Of a stretch of 38,474 nucleotides of DNA, positions 8,583 to 15,750 are shown piece after piece; the first letter of the stretch is position 1; every line of letters begins with the position of its first letter. The notes beneath the pieces were generated by a model. The model searched no databases and had not been told where the DNA came from. It saw nothing but the letters and a program-made list of their open reading frames with translations. The position numbers were made by a program, and so were the translations under genes. This DNA comes from a virus (lineage: Duplodnaviria; Heunggongvirae; Uroviricota; Caudoviricetes). The DNA is taken from the IMG/VR virus record IMGVR_UViG_2778261226_000006. One strand, 5' to 3'.

Positions 8583-8700
8583 GGAACGTTCCTGATGTAA
8601 GAACTTGAATCTGACGTCAGCAAGGTTGAACAACGAGAGTAGCGAGGCGTTAGCCATGGGTAAAAAAGACAGTAATCACCAGATTATTTATCGGGGCTAG

Positions 8701-8916
8701 GTGCTGGAACGTTTAACCCTTGGCGACTGGGTCTTCTTTCAACGCCCAAAGGAGTGTGGCGGAGGTTTTTGGTTGGGCCGCATCTATGAAGACTGCTTCT
8801 GGCTTGAGCTGGAATTCCCCGTTTCGCTATATGACGGCCTGGGGTTTTTGATGGAAGTCACTAGGGTAGAGCAGAGAAGTGATGAGGTTGACGCGAATTA
8901 TCCCCTGTTTGATTAA
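8701..8916 (+). CDS. Hypothetical 71-aa ORF (GTG start)
   Basis: Open frame only. The RBS is weak and no motif is recognised. Confidence 0.3.
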   Translation: MLERLTLGDWVFFQRPKECGGGFWLGRIYEDCFWLELEFPVSLYDGLGFLMEVTRVEQRSDEVDANYPLFD

Positions 8917-8964
8917 AAATGTATTAGCTTATAATGGAATACTATTTTTGCAGGTGGGGGCGCA

Positions 8965-9576
8965 ATGGATTTAGTCTTTAAAGTTCTGGCTTCGTTGGGT
9001 GGGGTGTCTTTTGTTGCATCTGGCATATTTGTTTGGATCGGGAAAGTTTATTTAGAAAGATATAAGTCGCGGCTAAACAAAGATATTGCTGAATTTCAAT
9101 CACAACTGAGTGCAACTAATGAAAGAATAAAGGCTAAGTTAGACAATTCTGTTTATGTAACGAAAGCGTATTTTGATAAGGAGTTATCAGCATATAGTCT
9201 CATTTGGAATTCGATGTTTGAAACCAGAGAAAGCGTGCTTAAGCTGAGGCCTGCGCTGGATCATGTTGACCCCAACGAACCATTTGAAGAGAGAAAATTT
9301 AGAAGGTTGAAAGTTTTTTTTGATGCATTTAACACTTTTGTTACAAGTGTTGAATCTAACAAACCGTTCATCTCACCAGAGGTTTATATAATCTTGGACC
9401 GTTTCCGGAAGGAATGCCTTTCAGAGTCAATATCGTTTAAGCATAGCGATCCAGAATTTGACGGGCAAAATTATTGGAAAGAGGCGGAGTTGAACCATAC
9501 AACCATCACCAAGCTTTTTGATGAGACGTGTGATGCAATTCGAAACAGGATGCACACATTAACTGTGGTTACGTAG
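8965..9576 (+). CDS. Single-pass membrane protein with helical cytoplasmic domain (203 aa); cargo at the tin/old position next to cos
   Basis: N-terminal TM helix VLASLGGVSFVASGIFVWIG followed by a long predicted helical region. It starts a visibly AT-rich block. The position corresponds to the P2 tin/old variable locus. Confidence 0.75.
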   Translation: MDLVFKVLASLGGVSFVASGIFVWIGKVYLERYKSRLNKDIAEFQSQLSATNERIKAKLDNSVYVTKAYFDKELSAYSLIWNSMFETRESVLKLRPALDHVDPNEPFEERKFRRLKVFFDAFNTFVTSVESNKPFISPEVYIILDRFRKECLSESISFKHSDPEFDGQNYWKEAELNHTTITKLFDETCDAIRNRMHTLTVVT

Positions 9577-9668
9577 GTTTCCAAAAAGTCTCGATGCCCG
9601 CTTTGGAGATTGTGCATGTCTATGCCGCATGAATCCGCATGATCGTTTGAGGATCGTTTTAGCTGAGG

Positions 9669-9695
9669 CCCGCCAGGAGTGGCGGGATTTTGCTT
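9669..9695 (+). terminator. Rho-independent terminator-like hairpin
   Basis: CCCGCCA-ggag-TGGCGGG followed by ATTTTGCTT, downstream of the 203-aa ORF. Confidence 0.45.
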
Positions 9696-9736
9696 ATGTC
9701 ATGCAGGCGCATGAAAACCGCTACATAAAGCGGGCA

Positions 9737-9755
9737 GGCGTGGCGGGGATACGAG
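9737..9755. other. Candidate cos cohesive-end site (186-like)
   Basis: GGCGTGGCGGGGATACGAG shares its first 13 nt with the 186 cohesive end as I recall it (GGCGTGGCGGGGAAAGCAT; P2 is GGCGAGGCGGGGAAAGCAC). It lies in a GC-rich non-coding island between two AT-rich cargo blocks. Its orientation relative to Q matches P2. Confidence 0.55.
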
Positions 9756-9825
9756 CGCGCGCAAATATGGAAATTAGCTGCGTTTTGTTATATATAGGAG
9801 AGATATTAAAAGGGTAGGCACCACT

Positions 9826-10350
9826 ATGACTGTTTTACACCTTGTAGCAGACCACCTTGTTAAGCAGGCTAATACAACCCATAGAAAGGGGGAGGTGCAC
9901 GCAATATTAGCAGATGCATATGGTCGTTCTGCTTTTAATCGGTATTATTATGCTTGTTTTCTTAACGTCCGTGAGTTTGTTTCAACTATTGATTCCAATT
10001 GGGGCAAGGTCAAGCATGCAGATGTTCCAAAATTATTACGTGATAGTGTAAGTAGAAAGATAGAAGTTGAGCTCCAAAAATCAGAAAAAATTGGCGATAT
10101 AACTTTATGTGAATATAAATCTAAAAAGAGCTTAATACGTACTTCACTGAACAATATGGCTTCAACTATGGCATTGGCATATACAATTAGGGGAGTTGTT
10201 GATTATGAGCCGGAAATTGAGATGATATTCTGTAATGGCAGTTTTTCGATTAATAAAACATCAGTGGCTTCGGCTAAGGGGTGGCTACAAACCATTAATT
10301 CAGAAAGATCGAAGGTTACCAGAATTATGAAGGAGATTGGCTTTGTCTAA
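9826..10350 (+). CDS. HEPN-like all-helical protein (174 aa), first gene of the retron-associated operon
   Basis: AYGRSAFNRYYYACFLNVREFV...KVKHADVPKLL and a distal AYTIRGVVDYEPE resemble the HEPN (PF05168-type) pattern: ...YYA.F.a...l....sH... then R...DY. AT-rich. The stop overlaps the next ORF. Confidence 0.72.
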   Translation: MTVLHLVADHLVKQANTTHRKGEVHAILADAYGRSAFNRYYYACFLNVREFVSTIDSNWGKVKHADVPKLLRDSVSRKIEVELQKSEKIGDITLCEYKSKKSLIRTSLNNMASTMALAYTIRGVVDYEPEIEMIFCNGSFSINKTSVASAKGWLQTINSERSKVTRIMKEIGFV

Positions 10351-11080
10351 CCAGAAAATATTATCAGAATTGTTGGTAAAATTCCCGTTTATAAAAGTTA
10401 AAGATGTAACAGATTTTATGGATACAATTCTGTTGATCATCCCAATTAACAAAATAGTACCATTGTCTGCTTCGAATAGTATAACAAAACGCCAGATATC
10501 TTTATTGGTGAAACGAATAACAGAAAAGCTAAATGTAAGAGTGTTGATTAGTTACTCACCATTTTCAGATAAAGACAATATTGAAGCGGCTTTAGTGGCG
10601 TTAGCGAGAAGTAATTTTAAAAAAGGGAAGATATCTGATTTGAATTTATCTTTCTTTGATTCGCAAAACGCAGTGCTTTATGTCTTTTGTAAAAACCTTA
10701 CATTATCAGAACGCGAGAAGTGGGAGTCGTTAGTTGTAGGGATATTAAACGGTTTTAATATAAAAGTGACTTCATTTGTATATGAGGCTAAAAATAATCC
10801 TGAACCTACAATGATGGTTATTTTAAGAGCGGCAAAAAAATGTCAGCCCTTTGATCTTCCAAGATTGTTCAGTCAACTTGATAATGGCGATTATCATATT
10901 GAATCACTTGATTGGCTGAATGGGAAGCTAGACAACTTACGTAAGAAAGGATTTTTATTAAGAAGCCATGACGGAACTTATAGAATGACATTGTCAGGGT
11001 TAGAAATAGTTCCAGTGACTAAATCTAGGCAAAGTTCTGATATAGAGAGGGTCCTTTATCTTGCACGCAAACATCTATAG
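10337..11080 (+). CDS. Unknown protein with C-terminal winged-helix-like domain (about 245 aa), second gene of the retron-associated operon
   Basis: Overlaps the upstream stop (TTG 10337 or TTG 10343, 7 nt after GGAG). The C-terminal segment MMVILRAAKKCQPFDLPRLFSQLD...LDNLRKKGFLLRSHDGTYRMTLSGLEIV looks like a wHTH with a beta-wing. The N-terminal alpha/beta region was not recognised. Confidence 0.72.
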   Translation: MALSNQKILSELLVKFPFIKVKDVTDFMDTILLIIPINKIVPLSASNSITKRQISLLVKRITEKLNVRVLISYSPFSDKDNIEAALVALARSNFKKGKISDLNLSFFDSQNAVLYVFCKNLTLSEREKWESLVVGILNGFNIKVTSFVYEAKNNPEPTMMVILRAAKKCQPFDLPRLFSQLDNGDYHIESLDWLNGKLDNLRKKGFLLRSHDGTYRMTLSGLEIVPVTKSRQSSDIERVLYLARKHL

Positions 11081-11089
11081 TGGTATATT
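11061..11089 (+). promoter_or_regulatory. Sigma70 extended -10 promoter for the retron ncRNA
   Basis: TTGCAC (11061-11066), a 17-nt spacer containing TG, then TATATT (11084-11089): TGgTATATT. The predicted start, about 7 nt downstream, coincides with the first base of the a2 repeat (11096). Confidence 0.5.
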
Positions 11090-11095
11090 CGCGTT

Positions 11096-11268
11096 GGTAG
11101 TGGCGTTCACGAGAGTATGCATCATGCTCATTTGTGAAGGTCGCGGACAGAATGTGCGCCTGCGAATCAGCAGTCGTTCCTTCGAAACGTCTGCTGATTC
11201 GCAGGCGTCATCAACGAAAGTTTTCATCAGCTTTGCTTAAGGATTGACCTTATGAAAACGCCACTACC
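11096..11268 (+). ncRNA. Retron msr-msd non-coding RNA (template and primer for msDNA)
   Basis: 12-nt perfect inverted repeats GGTAGTGGCGTT (11096-11107, a2) and AACGCCACTACC (11257-11268, a1). Short msr-like hairpins lie at 11108-11136. The long msd hairpin has arm GCCTGCGAATCAGCAG (11158-11173) and arm CTGCTGATTCGCAGGC (11191-11206), 16 bp perfect, plus a 4-bp inner stem. It lies immediately upstream of, and overlaps the start of, a retron-type RT. Confidence 0.7.
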
Positions 11269-12229
11269 CTTATTTTTCACATTCACTGATGCCGAACAGT
11301 TTCTTAAGGCGTTGAGCACACCGCTGAGAGATAGATATTCTGCGGAACTTATTCGACTACAAGGCCTCAGGCTTCCCCCATTAGTTTCTTGGAGTATCTT
11401 GTCTGTTGCCATTGGCGTAAGCCCACAATTTATTACTTCGTTAATTAAGAATAAGTCAAAATACTATCGTGTTTTTTCTATTTCCAAAGGAAGAGGAAAG
11501 AAAAAAAGAATTATTGAAGCACCCAAGGTTAGTATAAAAATCATTCAGTCTTGGGTCGCTCATCATTTAAGCATTAATCATAGTCTTGGCATAAGTGAAA
11601 ATGCATATGCTTTTATCCCAGGTAAGAATGGGATATATGAAGCTGCAAGTAAACATTGTGGTGCAAAATGGATCCTGTCTATTGATTTAAGAGATTTTTT
11701 CCATACGATCACTTCAGATATAGTGATTTCAACATTAGTTGAAATCGGATATAGAGCCGATCAGGCTGCTAAATTGAGTGAATTACTTACCTTGAATCAG
11801 AGACTTCCGCAAGGTGCGCCAAGTAGCCCTGTTATCTCAAATTTAGTATTTAGGTCAACTGACTTAAAGATTAATGAGTTGATTTCTAATACGGGTATTA
11901 AATATACTAGATATGCTGATGATTTGACCTTCTCCGGTGATGATGAAACATTTGATATCGAGGAACTTAAAGATAATGTTGTAGAGTTGTTACTATCTGA
12001 TAATTGGGTTGTGGCTGAGGAAAAACTCAGAATAGCTAGGATTCCTAATAGATTAAAAGTACATGGTTTTCTAGTTCATGAAAATAAACCTAGATTGACT
12101 AAAGGCTATCGAAATAAAATTAGAGCATATAAACATTTATTGAGGACTGGGAAAATAGTTGAGAAGGATTTTGATAAAATTAAAGGGCATGTTAACTATA
12201 GTGAATATATTGATAGATTGAATGAGTAA
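11252..12229 (+). CDS. ret: Retron-type reverse transcriptase (325 aa)
   Basis: RT motifs KKKRIIEAP, SIDLRDFFHTI, LPQGAPSSPVISN and the YTRYADDLTFSG (YADD) active site. Retron-style NAYAF is present, and LKVHGFLV sits at the position of the retron VTG motif. Size is typical of stand-alone retron RTs. Confidence 0.92.
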   Translation: MKTPLPLFFTFTDAEQFLKALSTPLRDRYSAELIRLQGLRLPPLVSWSILSVAIGVSPQFITSLIKNKSKYYRVFSISKGRGKKKRIIEAPKVSIKIIQSWVAHHLSINHSLGISENAYAFIPGKNGIYEAASKHCGAKWILSIDLRDFFHTITSDIVISTLVEIGYRADQAAKLSELLTLNQRLPQGAPSSPVISNLVFRSTDLKINELISNTGIKYTRYADDLTFSGDDETFDIEELKDNVVELLLSDNWVVAEEKLRIARIPNRLKVHGFLVHENKPRLTKGYRNKIRAYKHLLRTGKIVEKDFDKIKGHVNYSEYIDRLNE

Positions 12230-12249
12230 GGGCCTAGCCCTTACTCATT
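12221..12249. terminator. Bidirectional hairpin between convergent ret and Q
   Basis: AATGAGTAAGGGC-cta-GCCCTTACTCATT is a 13-bp perfect stem that spans both stop codons. Confidence 0.6.
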
Positions 12250-13280
12250 TAATTTAATGTGTATATTCCAAAGGATATGATTTTATCTCCTATCCAGTTA
12301 TTTAACTCTTCTAGTCTTCTCTGTAATGGTATTAACTCATTCCTCACAAAAACAAGGCTTGCCTTCTCCACATCCCCAAAACCCCCAACATTATTAGGCA
12401 TTATCCCCATCATTTGTGGGGGTACACGATGCGCCGCCATCATGTCGTCCCGGCTTACGTTCTTGATGTTCAGAAACTCATCCTTCGCCGCGACTTCTGA
12501 TAACGGGATAATCTGAAGTCCGTCCTTTTTGCCGTTAGGAGAGTACATAAACAGATTGCGGAAGTTACCTGGTCCTTTGGCGCTTTTCATTGCATTGCGG
12601 AGGTTGTTCACATCCTCCTGGTTTTGTGCGGCGTCGGTCATGTACATGATGAAGCCTGCATGACTGCCGTTGATGTAATACTTCCGGCGGAACAGCGTGG
12701 CGGACTCGTTGAGCAGGGCTGACGGAATGGCAGAAAGATAACCGGGCAGGCCGTAGATCTCCTGGTTGATGTCCGGTTCCATCAGATGAAAAATGCTGCC
12801 TTTCGTGAACTGATACGGCTGGGTTGTCATACCGTATTGCACAAACCAGTAGGTATCCAGGTCTAACCCGCGTCGGGTGTATTTTGCCAGAGCAGGCTCA
12901 AGGGCGATAACTTCACCAAACCGGTTCGTGCGTTTCTCCAGGTAGGCGTTACCAAATACCAGATAGTCCTGCACAAAACGTGAAAAAGCCTGTTGGCTGA
13001 GCAGCGGGTGAGGGATGTAGGTGCTGGTCAGAATGTTGCATTTCACCGCAATCGGTGAGCTGTGATGCACGGCGGCGCGGAAGGTTCGCGCCAGTCCGTC
13101 AAAGCTGACGGGAGGCTCATACCAGCGATCTGTCTGTACGCATTCCACATAGTCCAGCAGTTCGCGGCGGTCAAGTACTGGAATGGGATCACCGAAGCTG
13201 AAAGCCTCAGCCGTTGGAGCGTTGCCTGGTTTTGTGTTGTGATCAACCTTTACCAGTTTGATGTTTTTATGTTTGCTCAT
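12249..13280 (-). CDS. Q: Portal protein (P2 gpQ)
   Basis: 343 aa at the P2 Q position and orientation. Sequence is of the P2 portal family (…YGLPGYLSAIPSALLNESATLFRRKYY…). Confidence 0.92.
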   Translation of the reverse strand: MSKHKNIKLVKVDHNTKPGNAPTAEAFSFGDPIPVLDRRELLDYVECVQTDRWYEPPVSFDGLARTFRAAVHHSSPIAVKCNILTSTYIPHPLLSQQAFSRFVQDYLVFGNAYLEKRTNRFGEVIALEPALAKYTRRGLDLDTYWFVQYGMTTQPYQFTKGSIFHLMEPDINQEIYGLPGYLSAIPSALLNESATLFRRKYYINGSHAGFIMYMTDAAQNQEDVNNLRNAMKSAKGPGNFRNLFMYSPNGKKDGLQIIPLSEVAAKDEFLNIKNVSRDDMMAAHRVPPQMMGIMPNNVGGFGDVEKASLVFVRNELIPLQRRLEELNNWIGDKIISFGIYTLN

Positions 13281-13984
13281 TCTGCCAGCTCCTCGTTAGC
13301 AAGAGGCCATTCGCACATAAACAGCATTCCCCAGTCCTCTGCTGATAATTCTTTTTTCATATCATTCAGCCAGTTATCAGTAAACAACATTGCTCCTGAT
13401 GCTACTGCATCATCAGCGGTGAATACCATGCGGGTTACACTGTTGTTTCTGCTTAGCTTTTTATATTCCTGCCATGCCTCCGGGTTAGGGCTGGGAGTGG
13501 TGTAGTAGGTGGCGTGGTGGTGTGCGTGCAAGGACATTCCTTTGGCGAGAGTAATCATATTTCTCGGTGATTCAGCCCAGGCATACTCTGACACGTAGAC
13601 ATTTCCACTGAGTGCGGCGGCGTGGCACTTGAGGTCGATAAAATAAATGACCGCACCATTGGGAAACTCCAGATATGTTTTGCCAGATTTTATTTTTCCA
13701 GTGCGCGTATAAGCTGCGGTCTGGCTTAAAAATGCTGACACATAGGCTTTGACTGCCTGCGCTGATGCGGTGCTGCAGCAGAGGAAAATCTGGTTACGCC
13801 CGGTATGCAGTGCATCGATCAGGGCCTCATAGGCAAAAAAGAAATCCGCTCCTGCCTGGCGCATTTTTGTGAGTAAACGGTTTCTACTCTTTGGGCCAGT
13901 GTTCCACTCATACTGGTAATCAAAGAAAGTGCTATCCACCGGAAGTCCCGCGATAGTCATGAGGTTAGTTGGGATTGGGGGCAT
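13277..13984 (-). CDS. Terminase-large-subunit ATPase-domain paralogue (235 aa), lacking the N-terminal and nuclease domains
   Basis: Aligns by eye to roughly residues 150-395 of the adjacent gpP. FFFAYEALIDALHTGRNQIFLCCS matches FYFAHEALIDALLTGRNQIFLSAS. NVYVSEYAW matches NLYLDEYFW. YYTTPS matches YFSTPS. MLFMCEW matches LLMCEF. Start and stop overlap the P stop and the Q start. Confidence 0.8.
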   Translation of the reverse strand: MPPIPTNLMTIAGLPVDSTFFDYQYEWNTGPKSRNRLLTKMRQAGADFFFAYEALIDALHTGRNQIFLCCSTASAQAVKAYVSAFLSQTAAYTRTGKIKSGKTYLEFPNGAVIYFIDLKCHAAALSGNVYVSEYAWAESPRNMITLAKGMSLHAHHHATYYTTPSPNPEAWQEYKKLSRNNSVTRMVFTADDAVASGAMLFTDNWLNDMKKELSAEDWGMLFMCEWPLANEELAE

Positions 13985-15750
13985 CAAAAAATCTCCACAA
14001 TATTGCTGGTATTGGCGGACTCGCCCTGCAGCGGTTCGTTAAACAGTGCGTGCATTGTTGCCCAGGCCAGATCGGCATGGCTGGCTTCTTCGCTGCGGCT
14101 GGCTTCATAGGTCGGGCGGTTGCCGCTGGCGGTGGTGGCGCGACGGATTGCCATAAATGACTGCGCAATGTCGGTGTGCCCGGCGTCAAACTCCAGACGG
14201 CGGTGGCTGATAATGTCGTAGGCCTTGAGTACCAGGGCGTTTTTAACGTTGGGGTTGTAGACAAACTCCCGGACGGCAGGAAAGAACGCTTTCACGTTCT
14301 CGTAAACTCCGTGACCGACACCTGTCGAGTCGATACCGATATAGGTCACGTTGTACTGTTCGGTCAGTTTTTTGATGGCGTCAGCCTGGGCGCGGAAGTC
14401 CATCCCGCGCCACTGGTGACGCTCAAGAATGCGAAACTTACCGCCTGGCACGGCTGGCGGTGCCACCACCACGCATCCGGCGCTGTCGCCGTTCTGCGTA
14501 CCTTTTGCCGGGTCATAACCGATCCACACTTCTCGCCAGCCAAACGGGCGCAGGGCCAGTGCATGAAAGTCGGTCCAGACTTCCCAACTGTCCACCATGC
14601 ATGCCTGCAGCTCGCTGAGCGGAAATACGGACGCGAGATCGTCCACGAATTCACACATCAGCAGGTTCTGGTATTCGTCCGGGCTGTATTCCATGCGCAA
14701 CTGGTCAAGGTCGAACAGGTTACAGCCGCCGCGCACCGCATCTTCCACGGTGACTATCTGGCGGTATTGCCCGTCTGCACACAGCAGGCCTGGAGCCAGA
14801 TTGCTGTGGGACAGGTCGATGTCCACCTTGTCGGCTTTATTGCGCCCACGGTTGAATAGCGCACCGGACCAGAACGGATAAGCACTGTGTGTCAGGCTGG
14901 ATGGCGTGGAAAAATAGGTTTGTCGCCATTTTTTGTGAATAGCCATACCGGAAGCCACTTTGCGCAGCTCCTGGAATTTCGGTATCCAGAAATATTCATC
15001 CAGATACAGGTTTCCGTGGTAACTCTGGGCCGTGCGGGCATTGGTGCCGAGGAAATACAGTGTGGCCCCGTTGGGAAGCACCATCGGATCGCCTTTCAGC
15101 TCCACTTCCACTTCTTTGGCGAAGTCGATGATGTACTGCTTAAAGACGTGGGCCTGTGCCTTGCTGGCGGAAAGGAAAATCTGGTTACGTCCGGTAAGCA
15201 GAGCGTCAATCAGGGCTTCATGGGCAAAGTAAAAGGTCGCGCCGATCTGGCGTGACTTCAGCAGGTTGCGGATGCGGTTGGTTTTTCCGGCTTCCCACCA
15301 GTGGCGCTGGTAGTTGAACATGGAGGAATGGAAGATTTCTTCCAGCTTCTCAATCTGCTCATCGGTGAAAACATTCTTTTCCGGCTGACGGCGCGGGCCT
15401 TTGTTGCGGTTGGCGACGTTAGGGTTTAAGTCGGCTTCGTTGCCGCCATTGTTAAACTTGCCGATCCGCGCGTGGCGTTCCGACTGGCGCGCCAGCAGGT
15501 CAATCTCTTTGAAATCTTTCCCTTCTTTGTGCTCCTTCATAATGAGCTGGCAGTAGCGTGCGGCGGTGGTGAGCTGCATCTGATCCAGCGGCCCATAGTC
15601 ACCCCACTTGTCGCGTTTCTTCCAGCTGTGAACGGTTGCAACTTTCTCGCCCAGCATTTCAGCAATGCGGGCTACACGGTATCCCTGAAAGTACAGCAGC
15701 ATGGCCTGCCGACGGGGATCGAGATCTGCGGGTGTCAGTGTGGTGTTCAT
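13984..15750 (-). CDS. P: Terminase large subunit (P2 gpP)
   Basis: 588 aa with an ATPase segment (KSRQIGATFYFA, LYLDEYFW) and a C-terminal nuclease-type domain (IGYDPA...IGIDSTGVG). Occupies the P2 P position. Confidence 0.93.
   Translation of the reverse strand: MNTTLTPADLDPRRQAMLLYFQGYRVARIAEMLGEKVATVHSWKKRDKWGDYGPLDQMQLTTAARYCQLIMKEHKEGKDFKEIDLLARQSERHARIGKFNNGGNEADLNPNVANRNKGPRRQPEKNVFTDEQIEKLEEIFHSSMFNYQRHWWEAGKTNRIRNLLKSRQIGATFYFAHEALIDALLTGRNQIFLSASKAQAHVFKQYIIDFAKEVEVELKGDPMVLPNGATLYFLGTNARTAQSYHGNLYLDEYFWIPKFQELRKVASGMAIHKKWRQTYFSTPSSLTHSAYPFWSGALFNRGRNKADKVDIDLSHSNLAPGLLCADGQYRQIVTVEDAVRGGCNLFDLDQLRMEYSPDEYQNLLMCEFVDDLASVFPLSELQACMVDSWEVWTDFHALALRPFGWREVWIGYDPAKGTQNGDSAGCVVVAPPAVPGGKFRILERHQWRGMDFRAQADAIKKLTEQYNVTYIGIDSTGVGHGVYENVKAFFPAVREFVYNPNVKNALVLKAYDIISHRRLEFDAGHTDIAQSFMAIRRATTASGNRPTYEASRSEEASHADLAWATMHALFNEPLQGESANTSNIVEIF

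Follow-up and report, generated by a model that had tools for sequence, protein, structure and literature searches.

A complete type IX retron in an Escherichia coli prophage sequence, with a predicted non-coding RNA whose terminal repeat overlaps the start of the reverse transcriptase gene

The current analysis concerns a 38,474-nt stretch of DNA from a virus of the Caudoviricetes (IMG/VR record IMGVR_UViG_2778261226_000006), referred to at its full length as the window, in which positions 9826-12229 constitute a complete type IX retron encoding, in order, a HEPN toxin, a winged-helix (WH)/KH-HTH protein, an ncRNA (non-coding RNA) and a reverse transcriptase (RT). Within this locus, the segment 11096-11268 is very probably the type IX retron ncRNA, and the operon is very probably cargo of a P2-like prophage. 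Mestre et al. 2020 (PMC7736814) characterised type IX retrons by a HEPN-like gene upstream of the retron module and by a further, winged-helix gene whose overlap with the HEPN gene is ~8 bp, and the type was then dissected in three preprints of July 2026 (10.64898/2026.07.14.738597 and PMC13405049 for Retron-Kva2, 10.64898/2026.07.14.737667 for Sen3/Yin1). All three proteins of the window match the corresponding PADLOC models (RT_IX, 4.2e-129; HTH_IX, 1.5e-61; HEPN_IX, 1.4e-52) in the canonical gene order, all four parts lie on one strand, and their layout and spacing are shared by 10 homologous loci. The RT additionally matches Pfam RVT_1 (5.4e-23), the remaining PADLOC matches listed for it are all retron RT models, and its YADD motif (Y221 A222 D223 D224) is invariant in our alignment. 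The adjoining type IX RT and the two type IX accessory genes that precede it support the retron ncRNA that an initial annotation had proposed here. An uncharacterised E. coli prophage locus, found in its entirety in just 3 of 5,426 complete E. coli genomes, is thus assigned to a family of defence systems that was elucidated mechanistically in 2026; RefSeq lists it as two hypothetical proteins and a "reverse transcriptase family protein" and annotates no RNA there.

The ncRNA comprises 173 nt, such that ncRNA position n corresponds to window position 11095 + n, and its features are compiled in Table 1. An inverted-repeat search recovered both the exact 12-nt a2/a1 repeats at its ends and the long msd hairpin (22 nt, 95%), the latter consisting of 16 perfect pairs between 11158-11173 and 11191-11206, an outer C11157:G11207 pair and, beyond a U-U mismatch at 11174/11190, four further pairs formed by CGTT/AACG. 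Following a2, the short CAC/GUG helix of the msr domain encloses stem-loop 1 (SL1; 11113-11119/11123-11129, loop CAU) together with the invariant G11111 and A11112. The terminal repeats, the msr-like CAC/GTG and GAG..CTC pairings within 11108-11136 and the long hairpin had all been described in the initial annotation, and each is present at the coordinates given there; the complete anatomy of a retron RNA had been read from the raw sequence alone. As a chance control, 10900-11400 was shuffled 2000 times: perfect inverted repeats of 12 nt or longer appeared in 13 shuffles, and none reached 16 nt. When 11090-11275 was folded with RNAfold, as the initial annotation had suggested, the result was -82.1 kcal/mol, compared with -50.0 +/- 3.9 kcal/mol for shuffles (z = -8.3), and it is the a2/a1 helix that closes this fold. 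The predicted multicopy single-stranded DNA (msDNA) would measure 76 nt, or 71 nt after trimming of its 5' end.

Comparative support for this architecture comes from the window and 27 further loci (RT identity 38-88%), 15 of the 28 being enterobacterial and 13 non-enterobacterial. A search of genome contigs with the RT alone yielded no match, and an alignment-based contig search with generic retron motifs gave at least about nine type IX loci among the 80 matches listed; most close relatives were gathered from contigs encoding homologs and from viral contigs. From a plain, unbiased MAFFT alignment, RNAalifold recovered the 3-bp CAC/GUG helix, SL1 and the long hairpin, with compensatory changes in 24 of 31 pairs. 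Since MAFFT misplaced a2/a1, a second, N-padded and module-registered alignment was built, in which the long hairpin, and no other helix, was masked in the two loci that carry indels there (L003 and L005). Here, standard pairs account for 95.3% of cells, compared with 74.5% in shuffles and 34-46% for slid partners, and 35 of 49 pairs have changed on both sides; none of 500 shuffles reached the observed values. Every pair of the a2/a1 helix is compensated (12/12, with 98.4% of cells paired), as are 18 of the 23 pairs of the long hairpin, such that the changes which the initial annotation had named as a check on both structures do occur at homologous loci. The same is true of two of the three pairs in the CAC/GUG helix, two of seven in SL1 (two more vary on one side, and 100% of cells are paired, with all non-Watson-Crick cells being G-U) and one of four in stem-loop 3, where a G-C pair is exchanged for C-G. 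The terminal repeats read GGTAGTGGCGTT/AACGCCACTACC in enterobacterial loci and GTGGGAGTCTCA/TGAGGCTCCCAC in a second subgroup, and further compensated variants exist, such as GCGGGAGTCTCA/TGAGACTCCCGC. Positions A42 and G44, to which roles in termination within the RT active site are assigned by homology with the Kva2 cryo-EM structure, are invariant in 28/28 loci. Stem-loop 4, as predicted by the fold, is confined to the enterobacterial subgroup, within which its sequence is constant.

The types of mismatch tolerated in the individual helices offer a separate indication of which part of the RNA is the msd. Among non-Watson-Crick cells, G-U exceeds A-C by 32 to 0 in SL1, by 4 to 0 in the 3-bp helix and by 10 to 4 in a2/a1, whereas the long hairpin, in its inner 20 pairs, shows the reverse relationship, with 20 A-C cells and 4 G-U cells. 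Because an A-C mismatch in RNA corresponds to a T-G wobble in the complementary DNA, an excess of A-C is expected under selection on the reverse-transcribed copy. With the caveat that the loci are related by descent, this pattern indicates selection at the DNA level for the long hairpin and at the RNA level for the remaining helices, and it marks the msd from sequence alone. As an A-C excess restricted to the long hairpin, it also lends indirect support to the production of msDNA. At the level of individual loci, the K. variicola copy (L081) and eight others carry an A-C mismatch (T-G in DNA) in the msd hairpin where the window is fully paired (11162), and the window carries its U-U mismatch (A-A in DNA) at 11174/11190, which is paired in the K. 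variicola copy. The type IX msd hairpin is reportedly cut by phage nucleases, near its base in Yin1, and such differences between the window and L081 might alter trigger sensitivity.

Upstream of the ncRNA, the promoter-like element consists of TTGCAC (11061-11066), a 17-nt spacer, TG (11081-11082) and TATATT (11084-11089), all of which the initial annotation had located correctly. An element of the form TTGnnn-(16-18)-TAnnnT, with its -10 hexamer ending 5-7 nt before a2, is found in 23 of the 28 loci, 8 of them belonging to the 13 non-enterobacterial loci, against a background of 0.35% per equivalent window. This positional conservation supports a dedicated transcription start at ~11096, which coincides with G1 of the published ncRNA. 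A consensus promoter scan did not list the site at 11061-11089, as its -35 hexamer agrees with TTGACA at only 3 of 6 positions.

The functional assignments draw largely upon Retron-Kva2 of Klebsiella variicola (10.64898/2026.07.14.738597, PMC13405049), with which the window shares its operon order, its 171-nt WH-RT intergenic distance and its ncRNA length of 173 nt. The K. variicola locus in our comparison, L081, is probably the Kva2 locus. Its ncRNA is identical to that of the window at 167 of 173 positions (96.5%), it likewise adjoins the portal gene of a P2-like prophage, and its proteins are 81% (RT), 80% (HEPN) and 80% (WH, across 245 aa) identical, with the catalytic H64 and R122 of HEPN and the YADD at RT residues 221-224 kept. 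The window differs in its E. coli host and in six ncRNA substitutions, and it is known from its sequence alone; it agrees with the published Kva2 numbering at G1, G18, C34, A42, G44, G45, A115, C120, G121 and C173. Within Kva2, SL1 (G18-C34) binds the RT thumb domain according to cryo-EM, and msDNA has been shown for Kva2 (10.64898/2026.07.14.738597) as well as for Sen3/Yin1 (10.64898/2026.07.14.737667). Sequencing of the Kva2 msd identified ncRNA 45-120 as msd, with 45-115 recovered as DNA, and it was proposed that, "unlike typical retron systems", the guanosines at the ends of stem-loop 3 (G121/G139) are the opposing and branching residues, with exonuclease VII removing 5 nt (10.64898/2026.07.14.738597). 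The G139 of that study is position 140 here (G11235), and its G121 is G11216. A hairpin of the form G-AAA...UUU-G lies 3' of the long hairpin, past a short variable linker, in 28/28 loci (11216-11235 in the window), and it provides the sole invariant arrangement of template, G, helix and G. In every locus, the residue equivalent to G11235, with that of G11216 opposite, has the geometry of a branch site, as it lies at a helix end and faces the first template base. The invariance of this G-helix-G module supports, at the level of sequence, the non-canonical branch site proposed for Kva2, and we regard G11235 as the likely branching guanosine.

The terminal helix, for its part, overlaps the RT gene. 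With the RT start codon at 11252, a1 begins on the third base of codon 2 and ends on the second of codon 6; its placement within the first ret codons, already noted in the initial annotation, is real and recurs as an overlap in all 28 loci, a1 starting 1 to 10 nt past the first base of the start codon in each. In the second subgroup, where a Shine-Dalgarno sequence is not visible, a1 even takes in two bases of the start codon (UG of AUG). Across the 15 enterobacterial loci, codons 2-5 (AAA ACG CCA CTA) are invariant including their synonymous positions, whereas equally conserved residues at codons 6, 7 and 9 use 4, 4 and 2 different codons, respectively. Such frozen synonymous sites in a1 imply an RNA-level constraint on top of the coding constraint. 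According to the folding model, opening the ribosome-binding site (-18 to +13 around the AUG) would cost 13.9 kcal/mol in the window and 8.0 kcal/mol with a2 blocked; the calculated cost is 12-23 kcal/mol in 25 of the 28 loci (range 8.0-23.3), and blocking a2 reduces it in every locus, by 1.4-15 kcal/mol (~6 in the window). On these thermodynamic grounds, it is plausible that formation of the a1/a2 helix and translation of the RT are mutually exclusive. The Kva2 paper, which was searched for a coupling between ncRNA folding and RT translation, was found to contain no discussion of it. A further complementarity exists between the loop region of stem-loop 3 at 11220-11230 (GTTTTCATCAG) and the RT start at 11249-11259 (CTTATGAAAAC), which are 91% complementary and would form an 11-nt alternative pairing that also covers the AUG. 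This pairing was set aside, being only partly conserved in the enterobacterial loci and absent in the other subgroup.

One possible, still tentative scheme for type IX retrons is that the classical jobs of a1/a2 are split, with priming moved to the small hairpin 11216-11235 downstream of the template, as in a permuted retron RNA, and a2/a1 kept as a switch that closes the junction and, through the position of a1 in the first RT codons, sets msDNA-competent folding against RT translation; in this case a2 would co-evolve with the RT N-terminus. It is doubtful that the helix is chiefly a translational gate for the RT and dispensable for msDNA synthesis, stem-loop 3 alone sufficing as primer. Such a gate would account for the overlap of a1 with the start codon or first codons in every locus, for the inclusion of UG where a Shine-Dalgarno sequence is not visible, for the contribution of a2 to the opening cost and for the frozen synonymous sites. 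The helix may, however, equally be needed to place the RT-binding SL1 beside the priming hairpin, a role compatible with gating, and the second subgroup has features that suggest a compact structural junction, with G140 only 4-5 nt from a1 and a2 abutting the 3-bp helix.

Several points weigh against parts of this account. Firstly, the plain MAFFT alignment left a2/a1 out of structural register across subgroups, as the repeat sequences differ between them, and RNAalifold consequently missed the a2/a1 helix; in the module-registered alignment the a2/a1 register was fitted for each sequence, which favours pairing, and the kinship of the loci means that cell counts overstate the number of independent events. 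Secondly, the -35 hexamer falls in a conserved Leu-Ala codon pair of the WH C-terminus, and this coding constraint may partly explain its conservation. Thirdly, no Rfam family matches the ncRNA: a search of 10500-11800 at E up to 10 returned only chance-level matches (miRNA, CRISPR repeat, snoRNA) and no retron family. Lastly, the msDNA, transcription start and branch of the window are predictions, and the branch assignment in Kva2 is its authors' inference from the msd 5' end. This end is the base of the DNA duplex, such that exonuclease trimming after canonical priming would yield the same end.

Canonical priming of this kind would have a2/a1 position G11111 as the branching residue, with synthesis starting at ~11256 beside a1 and a ~117-nt msDNA being trimmed at its 5' side to the hairpin base, a course of events that we consider improbable. 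G11111 is the branch point favoured by the initial annotation, whose interpretation was right in outline as to the retron anatomy and wrong, or at least unsupported, in this particular. The residue is invariant in 28/28 loci and, as in classical retrons, has a position close to the 5' end with a stem-loop after it. Moreover, an exonuclease specific for single-stranded DNA would halt at the duplex base irrespective of where synthesis began, a length of ~36-37 nt, equal to that of positions 16-52, has been reported for the processed msr RNA, and one of the 2026 preprints terms the type IX ncRNA architecture canonical. However, G11111 lies in an internal loop between the CAC/GUG helix and SL1, the 3-bp helix separates it from a2/a1, and the strand opposite is the msr linker rather than template. 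The spacer from a2 to the 3-bp helix is 0, 3 or 9 nt long, and G11111 (position 16) is accordingly 3, 6 or 12 nt from the a2/a1 helix depending upon the locus, which leaves it without a fixed geometry to a1 or to any template; only stem-loop 3 keeps such an arrangement throughout. Furthermore, the msd from complexes purified by three laboratories measures ~55-71 nt and begins at the hairpin base in both studies that give its ends, and the Kva2 authors explicitly put the branch at the 3' base of stem-loop 3. G11111 is therefore an unlikely branching guanosine, and a branch at G11235 is the reading we prefer. The remaining alternative, that this is no retron RNA at all and the strong hairpin directly past the WH stop codon is an intrinsic terminator or attenuator, or else a repeat element lying by chance upstream of the RT gene, has the missing Rfam match in its favour and can be set aside with near certainty, as no T-run follows the hairpin and a terminator scan finds nothing there, for which reason a terminator was rejected, five helices covary over loci with only 38-88% RT identity, the hairpin mismatches are of the DNA type, and the 96.5% identical homolog makes msDNA from the corresponding region.

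Based upon these features and upon homology, the operation of the system may be envisaged as follows. A transcript covering ncRNA and RT would start at ~11096 from the promoter at the end of the WH gene, probably in addition to read-through from an operon promoter. As the covariation shows, this RNA folds into a junction closed by a2/a1, from which the 3-bp helix with SL1, the long hairpin and stem-loop 3 branch off. By homology with Kva2, the RT would bind SL1, prime on the 2'-OH of a guanosine, most likely that of G11235, and copy the template from 11215 down to 11140, after which RNase H would clear the template and exonuclease VII would trim ~5 nt. The expected product is a ~71-nt DNA hairpin tethered to the msr RNA via a short RNA-DNA hybrid. 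If the three 2026 preprints apply here, the HEPN RNase would be caged by the DNA hairpin, the RT and the WH protein until phage nucleases or DNA-binding proteins attack the msDNA and free it; the freed HEPN would then cleave tRNA/rRNA, leading to arrest of the infected cell and abortive infection. Since a1 occupies the first RT codons and stem-loop 4 contains the Shine-Dalgarno sequence, RT translation is probably blocked by the ncRNA in its folded state, and each transcript would thus be either an mRNA or a template for msDNA.

Table 1. Features of the type IX retron locus, in window coordinates (MFE, minimum free energy)
Feature	Position	Strand	Evidence
HEPN-like RNase effector (toxin, type IX retron)	9826..10350	+	PADLOC HEPN_IX 1.4e-52
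Winged-helix/KH-HTH accessory protein	10343..11080	+	PADLOC HTH_IX 1.5e-61
Promoter-like element, TTGCAC, 17 nt, TG-n-TATATT	11061..11089	+	Sequence; within and just past WH 3' end
a2, 5' arm of terminal inverted repeat, ncRNA 1-12, GGTAGTGGCGTT	11096..11107	+	Exact complement of 11257-11268
msr domain, 3-bp helix CAC 11108-11110/GUG 11134-11136 and SL1	11108..11136	+	RNAalifold, covariation
Termination region, A42 (11137), G44 (11139), then RNA side of RNA-DNA hybrid from 11140	11137..11147	+	Homology with Kva2
Predicted msd template, ncRNA 45-120	11140..11215	+	Predicted by homology, Kva2 numbering
msd hairpin, arms 11157-11178/11186-11207, loop CCUUCGA 11179-11185	11156..11208	+	RNAfold, inverted-repeat search, covariation
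Stem-loop 3, 11217-11222/11229-11234, flanked by G11216 and G11235	11216..11235	+	28/28 loci, covariation
Stem-loop 4, RT Shine-Dalgarno AAGG 11239-11242 paired with CCUU 11248-11251, plus start codon	11238..11254	+	MFE fold
a1, 3' arm of terminal repeat, AACGCCACTACC, within RT codons 2-6	11257..11268	+	Inverted-repeat search, 12 nt, 100%
Retron reverse transcriptase, type IX clade	11252..12229	+	PADLOC RT_IX 4.2e-129 over residues 1-324

Other characterized retrons help to define what is shared and what is particular here. Retron-Sen3 and Retron-Yin1 (type IX; 10.64898/2026.07.14.737667) are of the same family and have the same parts as the window, in different species. The tip of their msDNA hairpin is read by the HTH protein of a neighbouring unit (10.64898/2026.07.14.737667), and the RNA form of that tip, the CUUCG core of the msd hairpin loop, is invariant in the 28-locus alignment. 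Their reported higher-order assembly is a ring, whereas a sheet and asymmetric assemblies have been described for Kva2. Retron-Eco1 (Ec86, type II-A) likewise has terminal inverted repeats, RT-bound msr stem-loops and a long msd hairpin, as well as a 2'-5' branch from a conserved G, template removal by RNase H and trimming by exonuclease VII. The branching G of Ec86 is found directly at the a2 end, and its a1 lies upstream of the RT start codon. In the window, unlike in Eco1, a small hairpin of its own, located downstream of the template, is the best-supported branch site, and the terminal helix overlaps the RT coding sequence. The effectors differ as well, with an HEPN RNase and a WH protein in the window and an N-glycosidase in Eco1.

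Relative to the published type IX accounts covered, the additions made here are that an overlap of the terminal helix with the RT start is found without exception and that the synonymous sites within it are constrained; we likewise did not find in these accounts the DNA-selection mismatch signature of the long hairpin or the invariant G-helix-G module that backs the non-canonical branch site of Kva2. These comparative points bear upon how retron RT levels are set and upon the trimming or recoding of type IX ncRNAs in engineering. As far as the system itself is concerned, only two elements go somewhat beyond the literature found, namely the conserved overlap of a1 with the RT gene and the possible division of labour between one hairpin for priming and a separate helix for closing the junction.

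With regard to the genomic setting, genes for a P2-type replication endonuclease and a DinI-like protein border the operon at one end, and the portal and terminase genes at the other. The WH gene probably starts at a TTG codon at 10343, which is preceded 7 nt upstream by AAGGAG, rather than at the 10337 of the open reading frame (ORF) list; the former start gives the 8-nt overlap with the HEPN gene that the type IX family description requires. Directly upstream of the HEPN gene lies a 62-aa ORF (9629-9817), according to RefSeq a pseudogene interrupted by an internal stop, and within it a GC hairpin and the T-run after it (9669-9686) resemble a terminator. When 9600-12300 was used as a query, its first ~165 nt (9600-9765) matched many other E. 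coli genomes, which places the left edge of the retron cargo near 9766-9777. Further upstream, a 203-aa ORF with a hydrophobic N-terminus (8965-9576, plus strand) has no PADLOC or significant Pfam match. The segment containing it (~8583-9611) is missing from prophage H1, an otherwise 99.5% identical E. coli prophage in which the retron comes almost immediately after the DinI-like gene, and the ORF may be a second cargo gene of the same hotspot. A comparison with a P2 cos sequence gave no match, and no claim is made about cos. On the other side of the operon, an additional ORF of 236 aa, in which a Terminase_6N domain (3.2e-17) is recognised, lies on the minus strand (13277-13987) between the portal and full-length terminase genes; it is present and annotated in the RefSeq prophage too, and it looks like a partial terminase paralog. 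Lastly, near-identical type IX modules were encountered at five loci (L082, L083, L084, L086 and L088) in differing contexts, namely P4-like integrase/AlpA islands, a conjugation-gene neighbourhood, a CcdAB toxin-antitoxin neighbourhood and P2-like prophages, which indicates that the four-part module moves as a unit.

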